Below are positions 2,502 to 23,406 of a stretch of DNA of 64,000 nt, piece after piece. This DNA is from Lachnospiraceae bacterium (GTDB lineage: Bacteria; Bacteroidota; Bacteroidia; Bacteroidales; Bacteroidaceae). The DNA lies in the NCBI GenBank assembly GCA_963588155.1, contig CAVAGT010000002.1, positions 8,091-72,090 on the forward strand. The letters run 5' to 3'. The notes under the pieces are model-generated. The model was not told the origin of the DNA and did no database searches. It saw nothing but the letters and a program-made list of their open reading frames with translations. The translations under genes were made by a program, and so were the position numbers. Numbering within the stretch: the stretch's first letter is position 1; each line of letters opens with the position of its first letter.

Positions 2502-5078
2502 ATGACAAAAGAAATCAACCATGATGGACTTAACAGCGAGCAAGTCGTAGCCTCGCGCGCCAAATATGGCGAGAACGTGCTTACACCGCCAAAGAAAACT
2601 TCCATTTGGAAACTCTACATTGAAAAATACAACGACCCCATAATCCAGATTCTCCTTGTTGCCGCAGCCGTGTCTTTCGGCTTGGCGTTTGTCAACCACG
2701 ACTTCATGGAGACCATTGGCATATTCCTCGCCATATTCCTCGCCACTACCGTTGGGTTCTATTTTGAGCTCGACGCGGCAAAGAAGTTCAACGTGCTCAC
2801 CGCCATGAACGACGACCAACCCGTGAAAGTGCGGCGCGAGGGCAAGGTGACAGAGATTCCGCGACGCGAGGTTGTAGTGGGCGACATAATAATAGTGGAA
2901 CCCGGCGACGAGGTGCCAGCCGACGCACGACTCATCGCAGCCACCAACCTGCAAATAGACGAGTCGACTCTGACAGGCGAGACTCTTACGACAAAGAGCG
3001 TCAACAGTGACGGCAATCATGCGACCACCTATGCACCAAACATCATCCTGCGTTCCACGATGGTCATGAACGGTCACGGCGAGGCGGTGGTGGAGAAAGT
3101 GGGCAGCATGACCGAGATAGAGAAGGTAGCTCAAAAAGCCACAGAGGCCACAAACACCAAGACACCGCTCAACATCCAGCTCACGAAGCTTGCCAAGCTG
3201 ATATCCAAGGTAGGTTCCTTCGTGTCTGTCGCGGCTTTCGTCATCTTCCTTGTTCACGACATCCTCACCAACGACCTTTGGCACACCACCAACTATCTCG
3301 GCATGGCACAAACCGTGCTCAACTACTTCATGATGGCGGTCACGCTCATCGTCATGGCTGTGCCCGAAGGATTGCCCATGGCCGTGAATCTCGCCTTGGC
3401 CCTAAACATGCGACGCATGCTCAAGAGCAACAACCTCGTGCGCAAATTACAAGCATCCGAGACTATGGGTGCCGTGACCATAATATGCACCGACAAGACG
3501 GGCACGCTTACACAAAACAAGATGCGGGTGAGCGAGATTTTCAAGTCATCGGCAGACAACAGTGACGCGACGGCCAATCTGCTCGACACCGCCATGGCTA
3601 TCAACTCCACCGCCGAGCTCGATGGAGACAAGGTGGTGGGCAACCCCACAGAAGGCGCGTTGCTGCTTTGGCTCAAGGACCAAGGCCACGATTATAACGC
3701 GATGCGCTCCATATACACAATCGTAAACCAGATACCATTCTCTACCGAGAAAAAGTTTATGGCAACAGTGGTGACGGTCAGCGGCAAGACCCTGACATTC
3801 GTGAAAGGCGCGCCAGAGATATTGCTCAACATGTGTGGTTGCGACGCAGCCGAGCGCGAGACATACGAAAAGAAACTCCTTCACTACCAGCAACAAGCAA
3901 TGCGCACGCTGGCTTTCGCCTATGCTGAAGGCGACCTCACCAACGAGCTTTTGGAGGGCAACGCCTCTAGTCTGTCGCTTCAAGGCGTTTGCGCCATCTG
4001 CGACCCCGTGCGCGACGATGTGCCAAAGGCCGTAGACGAATGTCGCACGGCTGGAATACGCGTGAAGATAGTAACGGGCGACACCACGGCTACCGCCTTG
4101 GAGATTGCAAGGCAGATTGGTGTCACCGAAGGCGAGGCCATCACCGGACCAGAATGGGCGGCACTCTCCGACGAGGATGCCTATAAGCTTTGCGAGAACA
4201 TATGCGTGATGAGCAGGGCACGTCCCGACGACAAGCAGCGACTCGTGGAGATGTTGCAGAAACACGGCGAGGTTGTAGCGGTGACAGGCGACGGCACCAA
4301 CGACGCTCCGGCACTCAACTACGCACACGTTGGCCTGTCGCTTGGCTCCGGCACTTCGGTGGCGAAGCAGGCTTCCGACATAACACTCCTTGACGACTCG
4401 TTCAGCTCCATCGCCGCCGCGGTGATGTGGGGACGCTCCCTTTACAAGAACATCCAGCGATTCCTCTTCTTCCAGCTCGTGGTCAACCTGTCGGCTTTGC
4501 TGCTCGTACTCGGAGGCTCGGTGATAGGCACGGAAATGCCACTCACGGTGACACAGATCCTATGGGTCAACCTCATCATGGACACCTTTGCCGCCCTCGC
4601 CCTTGCCTCGCTTCCACCTTCCCACGAGGTTATGCGCGACAAGCCTCGAAAGGCATCGCAGTTTATCATAACCAAACCGATGGCAAGAGGAATATTGTTC
4701 ATAGGCACCATCTTCTTCATCATCATGTTCGCCTTCCTCGTTTGGTGTGAGCGACATGGTGCCGGAAGTGTCATCGACGTGCATGAGCTGACGTTGTTCT
4801 TCACCACGTTCGTGATGTTGCAGTTCTGGAACCTCCTGAACGCCAAGTGCCTGGGAAGTGTCCACAGTGCCTTCCGCCATTTCTGGCGCGACCGCGGTCT
4901 CGTGCTCGTGTTAGCGCTGATACTTGCAGGTCAATGGATTATCGTCACCTTTGGAGGCAGGATGTTCCGCACGCTCCCATTAAGCCTAACGGAATGGGTC
5001 ACCATAACGGTGGTCACGGGCGTGCTGGTTCTCGGAGGTGGAGAACTGTACCGAGCAATTAAAAGATGTAGAAAATAA
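2502..5078 (+). CDS. calcium-translocating P-type ATPase (PMCA-like, type II)
   Basis: DKTGTLT phosphorylation site, PEGL, TGE, KGAPE and TGDGTNDAPAL motifs, multiple TM helices. Confidence 0.93.
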   Translation: MTKEINHDGLNSEQVVASRAKYGENVLTPPKKTSIWKLYIEKYNDPIIQILLVAAAVSFGLAFVNHDFMETIGIFLAIFLATTVGFYFELDAAKKFNVLTAMNDDQPVKVRREGKVTEIPRREVVVGDIIIVEPGDEVPADARLIAATNLQIDESTLTGETLTTKSVNSDGNHATTYAPNIILRSTMVMNGHGEAVVEKVGSMTEIEKVAQKATEATNTKTPLNIQLTKLAKLISKVGSFVSVAAFVIFLVHDILTNDLWHTTNYLGMAQTVLNYFMMAVTLIVMAVPEGLPMAVNLALALNMRRMLKSNNLVRKLQASETMGAVTIICTDKTGTLTQNKMRVSEIFKSSADNSDATANLLDTAMAINSTAELDGDKVVGNPTEGALLLWLKDQGHDYNAMRSIYTIVNQIPFSTEKKFMATVVTVSGKTLTFVKGAPEILLNMCGCDAAERETYEKKLLHYQQQAMRTLAFAYAEGDLTNELLEGNASSLSLQGVCAICDPVRDDVPKAVDECRTAGIRVKIVTGDTTATALEIARQIGVTEGEAITGPEWAALSDEDAYKLCENICVMSRARPDDKQRLVEMLQKHGEVVAVTGDGTNDAPALNYAHVGLSLGSGTSVAKQASDITLLDDSFSSIAAAVMWGRSLYKNIQRFLFFQLVVNLSALLLVLGGSVIGTEMPLTVTQILWVNLIMDTFAALALASLPPSHEVMRDKPRKASQFIITKPMARGILFIGTIFFIIMFAFLVWCERHGAGSVIDVHELTLFFTTFVMLQFWNLLNAKCLGSVHSAFRHFWRDRGLVLVLALILAGQWIIVTFGGRMFRTLPLSLTEWVTITVVTGVLVLGGGELYRAIKRCRK

Positions 5079-12503: not shown

Positions 12504-14768
12504 ATGAAACAACAGTTTGTGATGGCCTTTGCCTTCATGCTGACGGCTTTTGCGCCTGCCGCGCAAGCGCAGAAGCAATGTTGTTGCGCCAAGACGGCAT
12601 TGCCCGTCTACCTCGACGACACCAAGGACATAGATCAACGTGTGGAAGACGCGCTCTCGCGCATGACTCTCGACGAGAAGATTGGCGTGATCCACGCACA
12701 AAGCAAGTTCTCCGCCCGTGGCGTGCCACGCCTCGGCCTTCCCGACTTCTGGACCGACGACGGCCCTCACGGCGTGCGCCCCGACGTGCTTTGGGACGAA
12801 TGGGAGCAAGCCGGCCAGACCAACGACTCGTGCGTGGCATTCCCCGCGCTCACCTGCCTCGCCGCCACATGGAATCCCGAGTTGGCATGCCTCTACGGCA
12901 GGAGCCTTGGCGAGGAAGCGCTGTATCGCGGCAAGCACATGATACTAGGCCCCGGTGTCAACATCTACCGCACGCCTCTCAACGGCCGCAATTTCGAGTA
13001 CATGGGCGAGGATCCATGGCTCACCTCCACCATGGTGGTGCCTTACATCAAGGGATTGCAAAGCAATGGCGTGGCGGCGTGCGTGAAGCATTTCGCAGTC
13101 AACAACGACGAGGAGTATCGCTTCCAAGTCAACGTCAAGGTCTCCGACCGCGCCCTGCACGAGATTTACCTGCCCGCCTTCAAGGCTGCCGTGGAGAAAG
13201 GCCACACGTGGGGGCTCATGGGTGGATACAACCTTTACAACAACGAGCACAACTGCCACAACAACATCCTGCTCAACAAGATTTTGAAACACGACTGGAA
13301 GTTCGACGGAGTCGTGGTGAGCGACTGGGGCGGCACTCACGATACCGACCAAGCCGTGAAGAACGGGCTCGACATGGAGTTCGGCACGTGGACTAACGGT
13401 CTGAGCGCGGGCGTGTCAAACGCCTACGACAACTATTATCTCGCCGTGGCATACAAGAAGGGCATCCTCAGCGGCAAATACACCGAAAAGGAGCTCAACG
13501 ACAAGGTAAGACGCGTGCTCCGCCTCTATTTCCGCACCTCCATGGCAAAACGTGGCCACGGCTTCCTATGCAACGAGGCCCACTATGAGGCGGCAAAGGA
13601 GATTGCCGAGAACGGAATTGTGCTCTTGCAAAACAAGGGCAACGTGCTGCCGCTGCAACTCGACGGCAACACCAAGAAGAAGGTGCTCGTGGTTGGCGAG
13701 AACGCCATAAAGATGATGACCGTGGGCGGAGGCAGTTCCTCGCTGAAGGTGCAACGCGAGATCTCGCCGCTCCAAGGCTTGCGCGAAAGGCTGAAGGGCA
13801 TTGCCGAGGTAGAATATGAGCGCGGATACGTGGGCGACACCACGGGCAACTACAACGGCGTGACCACAGGACAAGACCTGAAAGACTCGCGCACGGAGCA
13901 GCAGCTCATCAGCGACGCCGTGGAGAAAGCCAAGGGTGCCGACTATGTGGTGGTGTTCGGCGGATTGAACAAGAGCGACTACCAAGACTGCGAAGGTCAC
14001 GACCGTAAGCAATACGGCCTGCCCTATGCGCAAGACGACCTTGTTAAGGCTCTCGCCAAGGCAAACAAGAACGTGGTGTTTGTCAATATCTCGGGCAATG
14101 CCGTGGCCATGCCTTGGAAAGACACGGTGCCTGCCATCGTGCAAGGATGGTTCATCGGCTCAGAGGCTGGCGAGGCTCTCGCCTCCGTGCTCTGCGGCGA
14201 CGCCAACCCTTCGGGCAAGCTGCCGTTCACGTGGCCTGCCTCGCTCAACGACGTGGGCGCGCATGCCCTCGGCACGTATCCCGGCACATGGCGCGACGGC
14301 CACAAGATCATCGACGAGGACTACAAGGAAGGCATATACGTGGGCTACCGCTGGGCAGACGCCCACAAGACCCGTCCGCTCTTCGCCTTCGGCCATGGCT
14401 TGAGCTATACCACGTTCAAGCTCTCCAACCTTAGCCTCTCTTCCGCCACCATCACGCCAACCGACACCTTGAAAGTGAAGGTCAGCGTGACCAACACAGG
14501 CAAGCGCGCCGGCACCGAGGTGGTGCAACTCTACATCCACGACGACAAGGCAAGCGTGGACCGCCCATACAAGGAGCTGAAAGGCTTCAAAAAGGTGTTC
14601 CTGCAGCCTGGCGAGACGAAGGACGTGGAGATGACAATAGCCAAGGACGCGCTCAGCTTCTACGACGAGACCACGTCTTCATGGAAGGCGGAGCCCGGAA
14701 CGTTCACCGTGCTCGCTGGCAACGCCTCAGACAACTTAACTCTCAAAAAGGGCTTCACGCTCAAATAA
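12504..14768 (+). CDS. glycoside hydrolase family 3 (beta-glucosidase), exported
   Basis: Signal peptide, GRNFEYMGEDP, ACVKHF, catalytic VVSDW, C-terminal Fn3-like EVVQLY...KELKGFKKV. Confidence 0.93.
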   Translation: MKQQFVMAFAFMLTAFAPAAQAQKQCCCAKTALPVYLDDTKDIDQRVEDALSRMTLDEKIGVIHAQSKFSARGVPRLGLPDFWTDDGPHGVRPDVLWDEWEQAGQTNDSCVAFPALTCLAATWNPELACLYGRSLGEEALYRGKHMILGPGVNIYRTPLNGRNFEYMGEDPWLTSTMVVPYIKGLQSNGVAACVKHFAVNNDEEYRFQVNVKVSDRALHEIYLPAFKAAVEKGHTWGLMGGYNLYNNEHNCHNNILLNKILKHDWKFDGVVVSDWGGTHDTDQAVKNGLDMEFGTWTNGLSAGVSNAYDNYYLAVAYKKGILSGKYTEKELNDKVRRVLRLYFRTSMAKRGHGFLCNEAHYEAAKEIAENGIVLLQNKGNVLPLQLDGNTKKKVLVVGENAIKMMTVGGGSSSLKVQREISPLQGLRERLKGIAEVEYERGYVGDTTGNYNGVTTGQDLKDSRTEQQLISDAVEKAKGADYVVVFGGLNKSDYQDCEGHDRKQYGLPYAQDDLVKALAKANKNVVFVNISGNAVAMPWKDTVPAIVQGWFIGSEAGEALASVLCGDANPSGKLPFTWPASLNDVGAHALGTYPGTWRDGHKIIDEDYKEGIYVGYRWADAHKTRPLFAFGHGLSYTTFKLSNLSLSSATITPTDTLKVKVSVTNTGKRAGTEVVQLYIHDDKASVDRPYKELKGFKKVFLQPGETKDVEMTIAKDALSFYDETTSSWKAEPGTFTVLAGNASDNLTLKKGFTLK

Positions 14769-14772
14769 AACC

Positions 14773-15663
14773 ATGACACAAAACAACAACAAGGCAGCCG
14801 CCCACGGCGCGCTGTTCATCGCCAACCTCATATTCGGCTTGGGCGTGCCCGTTACCAAACTCCTGCTTGACAACTGGGTGTCACCCATGGCATGGATGGC
14901 GACCCGCTGCATTGGCGCGGCTCTGATATTTTGGGGCATCTCGCTCTTCATGCCCAAGGAGAAGGTGGTGGCGAGAGACCTCTTCGTCATAATGATTGGC
15001 GGCTTGATAGGCTTCCTCGTGTCGCAGACGTTCACGGCATGGGCCATAGACTACAGCACGCCGACCTACGTGTCGCTCATCTTCACGCTCACGCCGGTCA
15101 TGACCATGCTCTGCGCCACGCTGTTCATAGGCGAGCGGTGCTCATGGAAAGGATTCGCCGGGATAATAGTCGGCATCCTTGGCGCGATGCTCATGGTGGC
15201 AATGAACTGGCAAGGCGGCTCCGGCAAGAACAACGTGCTCGGCATAGGATTCGCATTGCTGAGCTTGCTGACCTGGGCCATCTATCTCATCATCACGCGC
15301 AAGGTGTCGGCAAGATACTCTGCCGTGACACAGATGAAATGGATCTTCCTCGCCTCTTCCATCGCCATACTGCCATTCTCGTGGAGCGACCTCACCCACT
15401 CCACCCTCTACAGCGCCGCATGGCAATGGAGCGGCGTGTTGGAGATGGCATACATCGTGGTGCTTGCCACGGTGGTCGGCTTCTTCGCCATCCCGTTCGC
15501 CTCACGATACCTCAAGGCCACCACGGTGAGCGTCTACACAAACCTCCAGCCCATCGTCACGGCCATAGCCGCCATTTGCCTTGGGCAGGACCACCTGACG
15601 TGGGACATCCCCGTGGCGCTCGTCCTGGTGTTGCTGAGCGCCTATCTCGCGGGAAAGAAATAA
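14773..15663 (+). CDS. DMT/EamA family transporter
   Basis: 296 aa, about 10 TM segments, two EamA-like halves (LTPV...GE; NLQPIV). Confidence 0.88.
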   Translation: MTQNNNKAAAHGALFIANLIFGLGVPVTKLLLDNWVSPMAWMATRCIGAALIFWGISLFMPKEKVVARDLFVIMIGGLIGFLVSQTFTAWAIDYSTPTYVSLIFTLTPVMTMLCATLFIGERCSWKGFAGIIVGILGAMLMVAMNWQGGSGKNNVLGIGFALLSLLTWAIYLIITRKVSARYSAVTQMKWIFLASSIAILPFSWSDLTHSTLYSAAWQWSGVLEMAYIVVLATVVGFFAIPFASRYLKATTVSVYTNLQPIVTAIAAICLGQDHLTWDIPVALVLVLLSAYLAGKK

Positions 15664-15747: not shown

Positions 15748-16128
15748 TTATTTCATTTGCACAACATCGCAATAGTTGTCCCAGTCTATCTCTGCCAAGT
15801 ATTTTTCCGCTTGTGTTTTTATCTCCGGTATGTTTTCCTTTGCCGTAGCCCACAATATCTTTGGCAGCACTTGCGAATAACCATGAACGAGAACATGCCG
15901 CATACCCTCAACTTGTTTCCATGGAATTTCGGTATGCTCCGACTTAAATTCTTTTGTAAGCATATATGCTGCTTCACCTACTATTTCTATGTTTTTCATC
16001 GTAGAAAAATAAACAAGTATGTTGCTCTCAAATTCCTCGAAAGCAATACCGTCTATTATTTTCAAGACATTGGCAGAATACTCTACAATGTCTTCCAATC
16101 TTCCCTTATCCCTAGCTAACTCTCTCAT
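15748..16128 (-). CDS. HepT-like HEPN (DUF86) ribonuclease toxin
   Basis: EIVGEAA, IPWKQVEGMRHVLVHGY = RX4HXY motif. Start at 16128 (MRELARD) overlaps the end of the MNT gene. Confidence 0.9.
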   Translation of the reverse strand: MRELARDKGRLEDIVEYSANVLKIIDGIAFEEFESNILVYFSTMKNIEIVGEAAYMLTKEFKSEHTEIPWKQVEGMRHVLVHGYSQVLPKILWATAKENIPEIKTQAEKYLAEIDWDNYCDVVQMK

Positions 16129-16414
16129 AGACCAGAAGTTTATCACGTTCTGCGCTTTCCTTAGCATAAGGACGCAAAGAGCCATCAACTACAAGATCAA
16201 CTTCTCTGCCCAACAATTGTTTTAAGTCCTCATACATTCCTCCATGGGTAAGCAATGTAAAAGAGCCATGATTGAAATCGGGCACAAATAATATATCAAT
16301 ATCACTCGTCGGCCTTTCTTCCCCACGAGCAAAAGACCCGAAAACCCAAGCTTTCACGACAGGCTGCCCCATCATGTAGTCATGTATTGCCTGTATAGTT
16401 TGTTGCCTATCCAT
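16112..16414 (-). CDS. MntA-like minimal nucleotidyltransferase antitoxin
   Basis: FGSFARGEERPTSDIDIL = GSX10DXD; LLGREVDLV; 100 aa, upstream of the HEPN gene. Confidence 0.92.
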   Translation of the reverse strand: MDRQQTIQAIHDYMMGQPVVKAWVFGSFARGEERPTSDIDILFVPDFNHGSFTLLTHGGMYEDLKQLLGREVDLVVDGSLRPYAKESAERDKLLVYERVS

Positions 16415-17511: not shown

Positions 17512-17616
17512 ATGCAATTTTTAAAGACGACGCAAGACTCGGCTCCTTTTTTTTGAAGTGGCGGCCTTCATTCAAAATCATTATTTTTAGGTATTACACA
17601 GAATCTGAAATAGTAG

Positions 17617-17624
17617 TACTTTTG
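17617..17624 (+). promoter_or_regulatory. -7 promoter element (TACTTTTG) for the TonB receptor operon
   Basis: TAnnTTTG match; predicts a TSS near 17631 and a ~210-nt leader. Confidence 0.65.
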
Positions 17625-17630
17625 CATTCG

Positions 17631-17844
17631 CTAGATGTGACGTTTCCATTTCATGGAATGTTGGAATAAAGGCAACGGATAAGCGAGAAACAGTCATTGC
17701 CCATATCATTACCAAGGTTTATGATATATAATAAGGTGAAGAGCCTTATTGTATTTTTATATTCCCCAAGAATGTGCTAGGCCCGACGTACAATACTCCT
17801 TATGGTACCACAATTATTACCCATCAAACGGCAATAACTTTGAT
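17631..17844 (+). ncRNA. candidate structured cis-regulatory leader RNA (four-way junction)
   Basis: Stems read by eye: GGAATA 17663-68/TATTCC 17760-65 encloses GGCAA/TTGCC, ATATCAT/ATGATAT and AATAAGGT/GCCTTATT hairpins. Lies between the promoter and the receptor ATG. Confidence 0.55.
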
Positions 17845-20046
17845 ATGATAAGAAGCAACTACGTGCGTAGGGGTTTGGGGACGCTATACATACTGACGAT
17901 TTCATCGTTGGCAGTGGCGCAGCATAGCACAGACTCCATTGAAAATGATTTTAAGAAAAGGTCACACGTTCAGGGTGACAGGTTTAGGAAAACCCAGCAA
18001 CTGGGCGAAGTGGTGGTTCGTGGCAACCAGGTGAAGCGTGTCAACTCGTCGGCTTTCAATGTGACAGCGGTGGACACACGACGCTTGCGCAACACCAACC
18101 TCGACTTGGCGCACGTCCTGGACCGTGTGTCGGGCGTAAAAGTGCGCGAGGACGGCGGACTGGGCTCCGGTGTGAGCATCAACCTCAACGGTTTCACGGG
18201 AAAGCACGTGAAGCTATTCATAGACGGTGTGCCGATGGACGGTGCCTCGCCCAGCTTTGGCATCAACAACATTCCCGCGAGTTTCGCCAACCGCATCGAG
18301 GTATATAAGGGTGTGGTGCCCGTGGATTTCGGTGGTGATGCCCTCGGCGGTGCCATCAACATCGTGACCGACCACTCGCCCCATACCTATGTGGATGCCA
18401 GCTACAGCTATGGCTCCTTCAACACCCATCGCAGCAACCTCTCGCTGGGATGGACCGGCAAGCAGGGACTGACCATTCGACTGAATGCCTACCAGAACTA
18501 CTCGGACAACGACTACAAGGTAAAGACGCAGTGGACCGACCTGCAGACCAATGCCGTGAGCGAGGAGGAGGGATGGTTCCGCCGCTTCCACGACCGTTAC
18601 CACAACGAGGCGGTGATCTTCCAGATTGGGGTGGTGGACAAGAAGTGGGCCGACAAGTTGATGCTCGGACTGAACTACACCCACGAATACGCACAGATAC
18701 AGAACGCCAACCTGATGAAAATCGTGTTTGGCGGAAAATACCGCACGGCGCAGGGCTTGGCTCCCTCGCTCCTTTACGAGAAGCGCAATCTTGGTGTCCC
18801 AGGTTTGAACTTCCGATTGTCGGCACGTTACGACATGGTGAAGACCAATAATGTGGACACGCTCAGCCGTACCTACAGTTGGACGGGGGAGTATAAGGCG
18901 AACGCCTATCAGGGCGAGGGAGTGCCTACGCTTGCGGAGTTTAAGGGCTACACCTTCGCGGGGGTGGCCAACCTGACTTATCACATCGGTGACCAGCACT
19001 TTTTCACGCTCAACGACACCTACACCCACTATCGCCGCCGCACTACCAACAGTGCCGCCAACAGTGTGCAGCAGACGGCTGCCACATTTATGCGTCGCGT
19101 CAACAGGAAGAACGTATTGGGATTGTCGTACAAGTTTATCCCCGATGACCATTGGAACCTCGTGGCTTTCCTGAAGTATTACGACTCACAGGTGCAAGGC
19201 CCCGTGAACGTGGCCTCCTCTGGCCGTGCCGACTATGAGGAGCAGAAGCGCGGCACAGATGCCTTGGGTTGGGGAGCGGCAGGCACCTATTTCCTTTTGC
19301 GGAAAGACCTGCAAGTGAAACTCTCGTATGAGCGCACCTATCGTCTGCCCACCGACCGCGAACTCTTCGGCGACGGCGACTATGAGGACGGCAACGCCAC
19401 CCTTCGCCCCGAGAAGAGCGACAACGTGAACCTGAACTTAGGTTATCAACACACTTTTGGCGAAGACCATACGCTGAGCCTCGACGCAGGGATCAACTAC
19501 CGCAACGTGCAGGATTACATCATCCGTACCATCGGGCAGAAAGGCGTGGCGGTGAGCACCAACCACGGCAAGATCTTAGGATTGGGCATCGACCTCGGCG
19601 CACATTATTATTATAAGGACGCGGCGAGCATCGGCGGCAACTATTCCGTGCAGAACACCCGCAACAAGGAACGCCTTAACTCCATCGGCGCGGAGTCGGT
19701 GACTTACAACGACCGTGTGCCCAACCTCCCGTATTCCTTCGGCGGCGCAGATGCCAGCTATACCTTCAAGCACGTGCTGGGCAAGGCAAACCGACTCACC
19801 ATAGGGTGGAACATGAGATATGTACACCGGTTCTTCCGCTCCTGGGCGAGCGAGGGAGCGAAGCTATATGTGCCCAACCAGTTGAGCCACGATGCCAACA
19901 TGGTGTATGCCATACACGGCGGACGGTACAACATCTCGGTGGAGGCCAACAACTTCACCGATGCCTTGCTCTACGACAACTACAGTCTGCAGAAGCCCGG
20001 CAGGAACTTCGCCGTCAAGTTCCGCTATGTATTCTACAAACGATAG
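17845..20046 (+). CDS. TonB-dependent receptor (non-SusC, siderophore/metal type; XusA-like)
   Basis: Signal peptide from ATG 17845; plug motif RIEVYKGVVPVDFGGDALGGAINIVT; LRPEKSDN; C-terminal LQKPGRNFAVKFRY. Confidence 0.9.
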   Translation: MIRSNYVRRGLGTLYILTISSLAVAQHSTDSIENDFKKRSHVQGDRFRKTQQLGEVVVRGNQVKRVNSSAFNVTAVDTRRLRNTNLDLAHVLDRVSGVKVREDGGLGSGVSINLNGFTGKHVKLFIDGVPMDGASPSFGINNIPASFANRIEVYKGVVPVDFGGDALGGAINIVTDHSPHTYVDASYSYGSFNTHRSNLSLGWTGKQGLTIRLNAYQNYSDNDYKVKTQWTDLQTNAVSEEEGWFRRFHDRYHNEAVIFQIGVVDKKWADKLMLGLNYTHEYAQIQNANLMKIVFGGKYRTAQGLAPSLLYEKRNLGVPGLNFRLSARYDMVKTNNVDTLSRTYSWTGEYKANAYQGEGVPTLAEFKGYTFAGVANLTYHIGDQHFFTLNDTYTHYRRRTTNSAANSVQQTAATFMRRVNRKNVLGLSYKFIPDDHWNLVAFLKYYDSQVQGPVNVASSGRADYEEQKRGTDALGWGAAGTYFLLRKDLQVKLSYERTYRLPTDRELFGDGDYEDGNATLRPEKSDNVNLNLGYQHTFGEDHTLSLDAGINYRNVQDYIIRTIGQKGVAVSTNHGKILGLGIDLGAHYYYKDAASIGGNYSVQNTRNKERLNSIGAESVTYNDRVPNLPYSFGGADASYTFKHVLGKANRLTIGWNMRYVHRFFRSWASEGAKLYVPNQLSHDANMVYAIHGGRYNISVEANNFTDALLYDNYSLQKPGRNFAVKFRYVFYKR

Positions 20047-20086: not shown

Positions 20087-21412
20087 ATGGAAACTACTTT
20101 TTTATCACTGCCCCGAAAGGCAGCGACGGGGGTACTCTTATGCCTTTTCGCGGCAACCGTGGGGTTTACTGGCTGTAGCAGCAGCGATCCTGCTACCGAC
20201 GACACTTCGCAGAAGGACGACCCCGACAGTGGCGTGAAAAACGGCAAGGGCCCTTATTTCCTCGCCGTGAAAACCGACAACGGCACGGAGTATATCATGC
20301 AGACCAACAGTCTGACGGCCGGCGACCTCGACATCAAGAACAACATCATGGAGTTGCCGCAGACGGAATACACGTGGGTGTTCAGCGGTCATGACGCCAT
20401 CGGCATGGTCTATCAGCAGCAGTTCGCCGGCTTGGGCTATGGACTGCGCTGGACATCCGACGAGGCACAGTTCGCCAAGCTCGGCGAGTTCCGCATCGAC
20501 ACCCGTTTCTCCAACTACGGATTCTTCAACGGCCAGTTGCTTACGAGCGTGGGCGGTCAGGTGTCTGCCGATGGCACACGCAACGACGGAGCCACTTTTG
20601 GTTTCTGGAACGTGACCGCCGACGGCGTGAAGCTCGACCATACCAAGACCATCTGGACGGAGGACATCACGGGCAACGGTCAGCAGATCACCTTCTCCAG
20701 CATCATCGACAACGGCGACGGCACCTTCCTCACCGCCATGGTGCAGTCGGCTTTCCACCAGACAGGCACGGGCGACGGCTCCAGCGTGGGCGAGGTGAAA
20801 TATCCCGACAGCTGCTGGGTGGCGAAGATGGACAAGGATCTGAACGTGCTGCACGTATACCGCGACAATCGCATCAGTTATGCCGCCGGCCAGTATCGCT
20901 CGCAGGTGCTGCACGAGGTTCACAAGGCGGATGATGGCACCGTGTATGTCTTCTCCAACGCCTTCAACGCGGCAACGACCCTCAAGGCAGGAGCCTTGCG
21001 CATCAAGAAGGGAGCCTCGGAGTTTGACAAGGACTACTACTTCGACCTCCAGACCCCAGCCGGCGGCTATAAGTTCCGCCGCGTGTGGCACATGACGGGC
21101 AACAAGTTCCTGCTTGAAATCTACAACGAGAAGACCATCAATACCATGACCGCCGGCCATCAGTTTGCCCTCATCGACATGGAGAGCCAGACGTTCACTT
21201 GGCTCAGCGGCATCCCCACGAAAAACCTCATCACCTCAGGCTCGGAGACGGGCGGCGTGCCGATGTATGCCGACGGCACCATCTACCTGCCCCTCACCCA
21301 GTTTGGTCAGGATGCCAGCATCTATCTCGTGAATCCCAACACGGGCGTTGCCACCAAGGGCATCACCATCAAGGGAGCGACGGAAATAAGAACCATCGGT
21401 AAGCTCAATTAA
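20087..21412 (+). CDS. DUF4374 family surface lipoprotein (XusB-like), copy 1
   Basis: Lipobox FTGC followed by an acidic stretch; YPDSCWVA, DNRISYAAGQYRSQ and GALRIKKGASEFDKDYYFD motifs. Confidence 0.8.
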   Translation: METTFLSLPRKAATGVLLCLFAATVGFTGCSSSDPATDDTSQKDDPDSGVKNGKGPYFLAVKTDNGTEYIMQTNSLTAGDLDIKNNIMELPQTEYTWVFSGHDAIGMVYQQQFAGLGYGLRWTSDEAQFAKLGEFRIDTRFSNYGFFNGQLLTSVGGQVSADGTRNDGATFGFWNVTADGVKLDHTKTIWTEDITGNGQQITFSSIIDNGDGTFLTAMVQSAFHQTGTGDGSSVGEVKYPDSCWVAKMDKDLNVLHVYRDNRISYAAGQYRSQVLHEVHKADDGTVYVFSNAFNAATTLKAGALRIKKGASEFDKDYYFDLQTPAGGYKFRRVWHMTGNKFLLEIYNEKTINTMTAGHQFALIDMESQTFTWLSGIPTKNLITSGSETGGVPMYADGTIYLPLTQFGQDASIYLVNPNTGVATKGITIKGATEIRTIGKLN

Positions 21413-21478: not shown

Positions 21479-22738
21479 ATGAAAAAGTTTATCTTTTCAG
21501 CCGCGCTCATGGCGCTCACGGCTTGCATGACCTTCACTTCATGCTCTAGTGATGACAACGAAGACAACGGTGGCGGTGCTACAACCATCGACCCCAAGGA
21601 AATGAGCTTCGTGGTGACATCTGGCGACCCTTCCAGCGACCTCACGGGCGGTGTGTACATGAAAGTGTATAGCGACCTCTCCACTGCCAAGACAGGGCAG
21701 AGCGTGTATGGCGCCAGCGATGCCGTGAGAAGCTACGACAGTTTCACCCAGGTGACCTACAACAAGACCAGCGGCATTTTCACCGGCTACATCTACGCCC
21801 GCGGTGCCTCGGAGCAAGGTCTCGGAAGCAAGAAGGCTGGGTTGCGCAGCTATAAGGTTGAGAACGGCAAGATGGTGGAGGCAGCCTCTCCCGTATTGGT
21901 GGACGCCTTCGGCAACACCGGCACCTTCGGCACCTTCTCGTATGCCGCACAGATCAGCAAGCCCTACGCCATGGTCATCGACCAGACGGGCGCGGGAAAC
22001 AACATCGCCGTGGGCTTGACACAGTATGCCATAGACGAGGTGAATCCCAACATCTCCAACATCGTGGACTTAGGCGACAACAAGGTGGCAATGGTCTTGA
22101 ACTACAGCAATCGCGACTCTGCCGTGGTAGCCATCTGCGACTATAGCCTCAACATCCAAAAGATGATCTACGACAACCGTATCGGCAAATCCGTGGGAGC
22201 CATGCGTTCCGTGCGCTACACCCAGAGCGGACTGGACGACAACGGCAACGTGTATGTGTTCTCCGGTTCCAGCGCCACCGACAGCAAGGTGGGTGCCCTG
22301 CGCATCAAGAAGGGCGAGACCGAGTTTGACAAGAGCTACAAGTTCGACATCCTCAGCAAGGCCGACGGCTACCGTTTCCGCAAGGCGTTCCACATCAGCG
22401 GCAGCAAGTTCCTCTTGGAGTTCTACACCGACAAGACGAAGTATGGCAACATGGATGCCTCCGGCAAGATGGCAGTGGTGGACATGGACGCACAGAGCCT
22501 GACATGGGTAACAGGCTTGCCCGATGCCTCTACCGTATCCTTCGGATGGGGTGACGGCTATGCCGGAGCTTACTATTTGCCAGTGGCTGCTCCCACGAGC
22601 ATGAGTGGCGGTTCGGGCAGTACAACATCCGTAACTCCCACCATCTACAAGATCGACGCCACCACTGGCGTGGCAACCGCATTCATGACCTTTGCCACAA
22701 GCGACTTGCTCAAGGCTGTGACCATTCTTAAGAAATAA
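21479..22738 (+). CDS. DUF4374 family surface lipoprotein (XusB-like), copy 2
   Basis: Lipobox FTSC plus SSDDNED; DNRIGKSVGAMRS and GALRIKKGETEFDKSYKFD align with copy 1. Confidence 0.75.
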   Translation: MKKFIFSAALMALTACMTFTSCSSDDNEDNGGGATTIDPKEMSFVVTSGDPSSDLTGGVYMKVYSDLSTAKTGQSVYGASDAVRSYDSFTQVTYNKTSGIFTGYIYARGASEQGLGSKKAGLRSYKVENGKMVEAASPVLVDAFGNTGTFGTFSYAAQISKPYAMVIDQTGAGNNIAVGLTQYAIDEVNPNISNIVDLGDNKVAMVLNYSNRDSAVVAICDYSLNIQKMIYDNRIGKSVGAMRSVRYTQSGLDDNGNVYVFSGSSATDSKVGALRIKKGETEFDKSYKFDILSKADGYRFRKAFHISGSKFLLEFYTDKTKYGNMDASGKMAVVDMDAQSLTWVTGLPDASTVSFGWGDGYAGAYYLPVAAPTSMSGGSGSTTSVTPTIYKIDATTGVATAFMTFATSDLLKAVTILKK

Positions 22739-22761
22739 TCATAATGTGTTCATTCAAGTTT

Positions 22762-23406
22762 ATGAGTAATCTCAGAACTTTGCTTGTGGCTGCCATGGCA
22801 GCCGCGAGCTTTGCTTCGGCAAATGCGCAAACCTCCCTGCCCGGAAAGATGGCAGAGGCGGTGAAAGGCGACGCACAGGCCGAGACCGTGTTGCAAAACA
22901 TCATGAGCCGCACGAGCGTTCGCAAGTTCAAGCAGCAACCCGTGGAGGATGCCAAGATAGAGGCTTTGCTCCGTGCTGGCATGGCTTCGCCCACGTCGGG
23001 CGACATGCAGCCCTGGCACTTCGTGGTGTTGAAGGACAAGAAAGACATCGAGCGATATGCGGCGTCCAACAAGTATCACGCCGAGGACATCAAGAAGACA
23101 CCGCTCTTCATCTTCGTCTGCGCCGACACCACGCGCATGACAGAGGGGCAGGGCAAGGAACTTTGGGTGCAGGATCTCTCAGCCGTCTCAGAAAACATCC
23201 TCCTTGCCGCCCACGCCATGGGCTTGGGCGCATGCTGGACAACCATCTATCCCATCCAGAAGAAGGTGAACGGCATTTCAAGGACGCTGAAGCTGCCCGG
23301 CAACCTTATTCCGCTCAACGGCATAATCATCGGTTATCCCGACGAGCCATTGCAGCCAAAGGACAAGTGGGACGAGAAAAAAATAACCTTTGGCATAGCC
23401 CAATAA
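22762..23406 (+). CDS. nitroreductase family flavoprotein with N-terminal signal peptide
   Basis: IMSRTSVRKF, ASPTSGDMQPWHFVV, ENILLAAHAMGLGACW, IGYP; N-terminus MSNLRTLLVAAMAAASFASANA-Q. Confidence 0.9.
   Translation: MSNLRTLLVAAMAAASFASANAQTSLPGKMAEAVKGDAQAETVLQNIMSRTSVRKFKQQPVEDAKIEALLRAGMASPTSGDMQPWHFVVLKDKKDIERYAASNKYHAEDIKKTPLFIFVCADTTRMTEGQGKELWVQDLSAVSENILLAAHAMGLGACWTTIYPIQKKVNGISRTLKLPGNLIPLNGIIIGYPDEPLQPKDKWDEKKITFGIAQ

Follow-up and report, generated by a model that had tools for sequence, protein, structure and literature searches.

A described relative of the locus considered here is the XusABC system of Bacteroides thetaiotaomicron. XusAB is a xenosiderophore importer (PMC13142918; this and the other papers are cited from partial texts), and low iron induces BT2063-65 489- to 676-fold (PMC10434189). 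The promoter consensus of the Bacteroidota and the absence of Shine-Dalgarno sequences from the phylum are described in PMC7366714. RNA control of iron uptake in these bacteria is barely described; in the accessible part of the preprint on IroR (10.1101/2025.09.08.672848) no regulatory RNA of iron homeostasis is said to have been reported earlier in Bacteroidota. We have analyzed a stretch of 64,000 nt (the window; contig CAVAGT010000002.1 of assembly GCA_963588155.1, here genome G000), in which the gene of a XusA-like TonB-dependent receptor adjoins that of a DUF4374 lipoprotein, as in XusAB-type operons. The −7 promoter box TAnnTTTG at 17617–17624 and the receptor ATG at 17845 can be read in the sequence, and we infer that transcription starts near 17631. 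The leader between them contains a long hairpin with an invariant internal loop that, from comparison of homologues, is very probably a real structured cis-acting RNA. It is an apparently undescribed cis-regulatory RNA, and a good candidate for a riboswitch of narrow range.

A conserved hairpin in the leader

Homologous leaders provide the principal evidence. Among 47 distinct sequences we aligned 27, omitting near-duplicates and the seven most divergent. A long, irregular and unbranched hairpin spanning 17675–17806 has 20 pairs that are formed in 97.8% of cells in this alignment, with two-sided changes at seven of the pairs (18 cells). None of 500 shuffles scored as high on three measures, slid controls were 31–52% paired, and RNAalifold independently predicts the same 20 pairs. 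The closing helix P1 is paired in 98.5% of cells, two of its pairs having two-sided changes, and the RNAalifold pairs are identical. Beyond the internal loop, helices P2a, P2b and P2c are separated by 3 × 2 and 3 × 3 loops, and P2b includes a C•A mismatch. Covariation within P2 is found at 17694/17786 (U-A to A-U), 17701/17780 (C-G to U-A or A-U) and 17703/17778 (A-U to G-C). The most conserved bases include unpaired positions of the loop. Its 5′ strand is invariant in 27 of 27 leaders, and in 18 of 18 rows when both of the gene contexts described below are pooled, varying in the divergent L036 class; the 3′ strand starts GUAYAA in all 43 distinct main-class cores, followed by one to three variable bases. 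Covarying structure in a leader, highly conserved unpaired nucleotides, and association with different genes of one theme are among the features of a riboswitch-type RNA, and these three are found here.

An earlier note on this DNA had proposed a different fold for the leader (17631–17847), a four-way junction with arms P1 through P4. Its strings were read correctly: all 26 pairs are present in the sequence, as are the promoter box and the complementary strings at 17789–17795, 17798–17803, 17823–17828 and 17839–17844. However, the minimum free energy (MFE) of the single sequence is ordinary, with a z score of −0.82 and 40 of 200 shuffles folding equally well, and the P1–P3 of the proposal are missing from the MFE structure. 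With 28 extra bases the four-way fold comes within 1.6 kcal/mol of the MFE, alongside a hairpin that hides the start codon. In the 27 homologues the proposed junction is paired in 72.9% of cells (69.5% for its P1 and 62.1% for its P3), and its P1, P3 and P4 are not conserved. Four of the five proposed P2 pairs can be formed in most homologues, with zero covariation. The region of P3 and P4 is a variable insert, of which several homologues have a short form or none; as delimited in Table 1, the insert takes in the 3′ arm of the proposed P3, the whole of P4 and the 3′ arm of P1. The proposed 5′ hairpin is peculiar to this strain; in its two closest relatives an insert of ∼75–80 nt lies at this point. 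On the ordinary MFE and the 72.9% pairing in homologues we rule out the four-way junction as the conserved fold. An AT-rich 10-mer at 17727–17737, within the insert, has 33 copies in G000, mostly intergenic and often within a longer TATA-rich word.

The broader suggestion, that the leader of this siderophore-uptake-type operon holds an unassigned cis-regulatory RNA, is supported by the conserved structure and by the Rfam scan that the note had called for. Searching the window against Rfam 15 (4227 families) gave no match at the gathering threshold, and the leader with two short homologues gave only sub-threshold, chance-level matches (E 0.5 or worse). Nor did we find the element in the literature on riboswitches and RNA motifs of Bacteroidetes or Prevotella with such gene contexts, a search that covered texts other than supplementary motif lists. 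The note had also raised translation from a TTG at 17749. This is in frame in just 2 of 29 leaders; such lack of conservation indicates that the leader is non-coding, and we reject a longer receptor beginning there. The receptor is without the N-terminal extension found in its ∼800-aa relatives. The idea that the leader is a coding remnant of that extension was rejected in turn, as a profile built from 33 extensions, run on 29 leaders in all three forward frames, had no match with E below 1.

Two gene contexts and their distribution

The core of the hairpin is not restricted to receptor genes. A covariance model matched 4 of 149 other genomes of the genus, and one of the matches precedes a gene with FMN_bind and Fer4_5 domains (binding flavin mononucleotide, FMN, and a 4Fe-4S cluster) that is followed by a nitroreductase. 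A pattern search of 400 genomes of the genus gave 19 matches in 17 genomes, comprising 13 before a receptor, four before an FMN/Fe-S gene and two within coding sequence. With the core model, 29 of 37 selected genomes gave matches, and a fifth FMN/Fe-S copy came to light, closely related to one of the first four. There are thus five loci in which the core precedes FMN_bind+Fer4_5 genes, the second gene of the operon encoding a nitroreductase, a flavin reductase or the two fused (by similarity in the fifth copy). In the three scored copies that have a promoter box, the core begins 3–7 nt past the inferred start site, while the fourth lies at a contig end; the outermost pairs are lacking in this context. 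Three genomes contain both contexts. When the cores of both are pooled (18 rows) 93.3% of cells are paired, with 11 two-sided cells and none of 500 shuffles as high, and the helices predicted by RNAalifold agree. By this comparison the core is an element of a two-context regulon. FMN-binding NapH-like proteins act in extracytosolic electron transfer, according to the part of PMC8238504 consulted. In S. copri-type loci (L021 and L120–L130) the receptor operon has an FMN/Fe-S homologue immediately upstream, whose own leader has no motif. At another locus (L357, G723:C22) a gene of the CobN/Mg-chelatase family is divergent from a motif-bearing FMN/Fe-S operon.

The two contexts are further connected by a flavoprotein. 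Where enough DNA is available downstream, a nitroreductase accompanies the core in 39 of 39 receptor loci, and none of 13 PepSY-type loci (the distant loci being subsampled) has the core. Nitroreductase and PepSY are mutually exclusive across the operons examined, and the nitroreductase of the window operon is 46–52% identical to those of the FMN/Fe-S context. Together with the flavoenzyme genes, this association suggests a flavin-type ligand as a first guess, which is still rather doubtful.

How general is the element? Receptor loci were counted where at least 150 nt of upstream sequence was available, and include many near-duplicates. Where the receptor is at least 60% identical, the outer helix is present in 66 of 67 loci and the core in 63, the single miss (L142) having a mis-set start. 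None of 87 more distant receptor loci has the element. A quick tree of 94 rows places all motif-bearing receptors within one clade of 45 rows (Shimodaira–Hasegawa-like approximate likelihood ratio test, 96). The covariance model recovers two divergent leaders on which it was not trained, L140 (E 0.0003) and L139 (E 0.009); it did not recover L117. G000 has one copy, and its own FMN/Fe-S and nitroreductase-fusion genes are without the motif. On viral contigs the model matched 0 of 10 and 0 of 80 loci (80 fetched of 88 found), and plasmids gave no match. Among the genomes searched the element is limited to those of Prevotella type.

Several records within this group are unusual. Eight (L016, L017, L019, L022, L029, L030, L032 and L035) are titled Bacillota, Actinomycetota, Chloroflexota or Alistipes, and their receptors nest in the Prevotella clade; these are likely to be mislabelled or mixed bins. 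In L129 (position 4579; runs X5 and X9), L074 and L042 the receptor is seemingly shortened or broken and the leader is kept, the contigs jumping from inside the receptor gene to where the lipoprotein gene begins. In L139 (∼3780–3997) the 3′ half of the element, comprising the switch strand and downstream hairpin, is tandemly duplicated before the receptor.

The start region and competing explanations

The earlier note had suggested control of translation initiation. We consider that the element probably does act on translation through alternative pairing, as the note held. In the direction that we predict, formation of the core turns expression on. Strand 17812–17825, in segment Y, co-varies with two mutually exclusive partners, the upstream segment X and the pre-AUG segment Z. 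Over 13 leaders the X:Y duplex has a mean energy of −4.6 kcal/mol when matched and −2.9 when unmatched (permutation p 0.0003); the control of X against a coding stretch gave p 0.98, and the X:Y duplex of the window itself is weak (−3.1, rank 5 of 13). For Y:Z the means are −4.4 and −2.9 (p 0.0004, 13 leaders, with Y and Z overlapping in three short ones). Both tests were run after the duplexes had been seen. When the core is forced, the energy required to open the start region is lower in 21 of 26 leaders, unchanged in three and higher in two; this scoring excluded seven divergent leaders without an exact core. The median opening energy is 10.9 kcal/mol in 27 motif-bearing leaders and 6.2 in 24 motif-less receptors, a comparison in which kin are not independent and G+C content is unmatched. 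On folding the window sequence, P1 has a probability of 0.78 in the nascent RNA, and pairing of the switch strand with the start region a probability of 0.99 at full length.

These properties would be consistent with a translational ON riboswitch, in which the leader hairpin is stabilized by a ligand and unmasks the start codon, a reading to which we give an even chance. The core and P1 would form first in the nascent RNA. With no ligand the full transcript would relax to a hairpin over the initiation region 17796–17855, whereas with ligand bound P1 and the X:Y helix would persist and the ribosome could load at 17845. Lying downstream of a putative iron-responsive operator, the switch would make an AND gate, in which low iron and available cofactor together lead to expression of an importer of xenosiderophores and its flavin-dependent reductase; the stand-alone FMN/Fe-S flavoenzyme operons would be under control of that core as well. 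In this model, the hairpin, the invariant internal loop, the two gene contexts and the exclusive X:Y and Y:Z pairings come from comparison, and the nascent-first formation and later relaxation from folding calculations. Direct sensing of a small molecule or ion by the hairpin could go either way; in place of a flavin, the binding partner may be iron, a protein, a redox cofactor or a fragment of a siderophore. In its most specific form the proposal is of a new riboswitch class, in which a pocket resembling the hairpin ribozyme's loop B binds a flavin or guanine-like cofactor, turns translation on and ties iron piracy by Prevotella to flavin or redox supply, and this we regard as speculative and rather unlikely.

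A number of observations weigh against the riboswitch. The covariation of the hairpin stems from some six to eight lineage events, counted by eye, and kinship inflates the counts. Pairing of the switch strand with the AUG has zero covariation support; it is within only the best 9–16% of start contexts in the genome, where 232 of 1824 pair as well, and it is weak in L034, L039, L043, L117 and L135. A ‘triple covariation’ in L034 was not upheld on re-examination. In the second context the ON direction is predicted in just two of four copies, and is reversed in one. Forcing the core in the full-length leader of the window costs 7.5 kcal/mol, so control would need to be kinetic. In L117, L139 and L140 the outer helix is retained but the core is missing. 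The match between core and nitroreductase lies within one clade, amounting to about one evolutionary event. The element is found in none of 149 other genomes of the family, and 94 genomes of the order gave two weak matches, both within open reading frames.

What else might the hairpin be? The main rival to the ligand-responsive switch is a site for a regulatory protein, such as the regulon's nitroreductase-family protein or an RNA-binding factor, that stabilizes the ON fold. We hold this to be a minority possibility. It would account for invariant bases in helices as well as loops, for the narrow distribution and for the related nitroreductase in both types of operon; yet the nitroreductases have signal-like N-termini and are thus likely to be exported, one operon of the second context has a flavin-reductase domain only, and no conserved regulator gene adjoins the loci, among those listed. 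It is improbable that the element governs mRNA half-life as a 5′ signal for stability or processing, with the downstream hairpin only damping translation. The lack of covariation in the AUG pairing and the position of second-context copies at the extreme 5′ end of the predicted transcript would suit this view, but a stabilizer has no need of invariant loops, the copies in receptor leaders start 13–121 nt from the inferred start, and segment Y co-varies with two exclusive partners.

We hold it decidedly improbable that the leader is bound and switched by an iron-regulated small RNA acting in trans; targets of small RNAs seldom need a conserved fold with three loops. G000 does have an operator-preceded non-coding unit (on contig C31, discussed below) that could encode such an RNA, but its pairing with the leader is unexceptional, 29 of 60 other leaders being as good; an iron-induced small RNA is known in B. 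thetaiotaomicron (10.1101/2025.09.08.672848, in part). We find it very unlikely that the receptor is controlled by translational coupling to a short upstream open reading frame (Met-Val-Pro-Gln…, 17802–17837). Most receptor leaders contain it, and codon 2 varies synonymously among them, but its frame relative to the receptor may be 0, 1 or 2, its length varies, its AUG is lost in the L036 class, L135 and L034/L035, and it is missing in the second context. Finally, the loop matches positions 20–26 and 36–40 of the hairpin ribozyme, including A22–A24, C25 and A38, so that one might imagine a degenerate ribozyme, or else a module of loop-B type able to cleave the mRNA once docked on a loop-A partner. 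That is scarcely credible. In all 43 cores position 41 is A where the ribozyme has U, and position 42 is variable; there is no loop A, and the equivalent of G+1 is C (aligned by eye); copies of the second context begin where we place the start site; and no match to the hairpin ribozyme was found in Rfam.

The operon and its relation to known systems

The features of the locus are collected in Table 1. The spacing between operator and promoter box is identical in homologues, and an operator-like match is present in 35 of 51 distinct upstream regions of distant xusA-like genes. A matrix scan of G000 gave seven sites above threshold, the top ones preceding the receptor, a non-coding unit, and flavodoxin and feoAB genes (the last two read by eye). 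From its sequence context the operator is likely to be bound by an iron-responsive repressor. The same palindrome, often in two tandem copies, is found upstream of many xusA-like genes (L080–L105), and is a candidate for the binding motif of a Bacteroidales iron regulator. The non-coding unit on contig C31 (∼1157–1320) begins with an operator of the iron-regulon type and a −7 box, behind which lie ∼105 nt of non-coding RNA with a terminator-like hairpin at the end; it is a candidate iron-regulated small RNA.

Table 1. Features of the leader and operon in the window.
Feature	Coordinates	Strand	Basis and details
Near-palindromic operator, overlapping the −33 region	17573..17597	+	Kept upstream of motif-bearing receptors
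Bacteroidota −7 promoter box	17617..17624	+	Sequence; consensus from partial text of PMC7366714
Segment X, predicted partner of segment Y in the ON fold	17661..17672	+	Matched-duplex permutation test
P1 closing helix, 5′ strand	17675..17687	+	Pairs 17675-76/17805-06, 17679-83/17799-803, 17685-87/17796-98; bulge 17684
Internal loop, 5′ strand, candidate binding pocket	17688..17692	+	Conservation
P2a, P2b and P2c, 5′ strands	17693..17710	+	P2a 17693-95/17785-87; P2b 17699-703/17778-82; P2c 17707-10/17771-74
Variable apical insert with its own hairpin, outside the core	17711..17770	+	A few nt in several homologues
P2c, P2b and P2a, 3′ strands, and internal loop 3′ strand (17788-95)	17771..17795	+	Covariation, conservation
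Switch strand: 3′ strand of P1 or predicted start-codon cover	17796..17811	+	Alternative pairs 17799-803/17848-52, 17805-07/17844-46
Segment Y and pre-AUG hairpin (17814-21/17830-37), predicted initiation block	17812..17837	+	Duplex test, opening energies
TonB-dependent receptor, XusA homologue, 733 aa	17845..20046	+	Pfam Plug; PDB 9GBC chain A, E 1.2e-184
DUF4374 lipoprotein 1, XusB homologue	20087..21412	+	Pfam; matches 9GBC chain B and XusB-type chains
DUF4374 lipoprotein 2	21479..22738	+	Pfam
Nitroreductase-family flavoprotein, signal-like N-terminus	22744..23406	+	Pfam

The operon is of the siderophore-uptake type, where import of ferric siderophore and repression by iron are suggested by homology and by the operator motif. 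A PepSY inner-membrane reductase of the XusC type is not found in the operon of the window, and the nitroreductase there is likely to stand in for it. A sigma-70-based scan of the leader gave no terminator-like site, the sigma-70 promoter model being unsuited to this host. Contigs from RNA runs of an S. copri-type homologue reach upstream of the promoter, and are therefore uninformative on start site or expression. In the passages covered of an S. copri transcriptome preprint (10.1101/2024.04.05.588293) neither TonB nor cis-regulatory elements are mentioned. Elsewhere in the window, adjacent nucleotidyltransferase and HepT-like genes (15748–16414) are likely a bacterial toxin–antitoxin pair. 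A short open reading frame on contig C47 of G000 (∼14700–14900) has a double-glycine leader and Cys-rich NCG repeats, and is likely to encode the precursor of a ribosomally synthesized and post-translationally modified peptide; it has two short, chance-like matches to the leader.

New riboswitch classes are rare. The core is compact at ∼70 nt, with natural short versions in L228, L114 and L039, the two gene contexts narrow the list of ligands, and the Segatella copri group has a carrier in L021. If the proposal is true, it would show how initiation is gated by a leader RNA in bacteria whose phylum lacks Shine-Dalgarno sequences, and provide a natural loop-B-like module outside a ribozyme.

Compared with XusABC of B. 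thetaiotaomicron (PMC13142918 and PMC10434189, in part), the window operon has a homologous receptor and DUF4374 lipoprotein and an operator-like motif. It differs in having two lipoproteins, a nitroreductase for PepSY, a shorter receptor and the long structured leader that the 87 distant loci compared lack. Translational riboswitches with anti-sequestrator platforms similarly place a core with invariant loops in a 5′ leader, use exclusive pairings near the start codon and occur in several contexts of one theme; here no Rfam family is matched, the host lacks Shine-Dalgarno sequences so that the target would be the AUG region itself, and the ligand is putative. The FMN (RFN) riboswitch shares a possible link to flavin, yet the present element has no match to it in Rfam, is far smaller, is predicted to be ON, and precedes flavin-using enzymes rather than genes of riboflavin synthesis or transport. 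The NiCo/czcD metal riboswitch, to which the earlier note likened the leader in suggesting metal sensing, is also a leader RNA tied to metal physiology. The analogy fails on structure, for the conserved fold is unbranched with other pairings, the junction arms are missing in several homologues and Rfam gives no match, and it fails on gene context, for the element precedes uptake and redox genes, and the second context indicates flavin enzymes and not metal export.

There is a structural likeness to the hairpin ribozyme's loop B (sequence from PMC3672286 and invariants, including the near-invariant U41 and U42, from PMC8216279, both in part). The same 7-nt 5′ strand and the first five bases of the 3′ strand lie between two helices, making up half of loop B, and five of the seven invariants in PMC8216279 (A22, A23, A24, C25 and A38) are matched in main-class cores, though not in the L036 class. 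The element is nevertheless very unlikely to be a hairpin ribozyme. Beyond the changes at U41 and U42 the 3′ strand of its loop is 8–10 nt long, no loop A with G8 and G+1 is seen by eye, and the corresponding region is missing in the second-context copies. Instead it is a leader of mRNA encoded in a DNA genome that, by analogy, may use a pocket similar to that of loop B.

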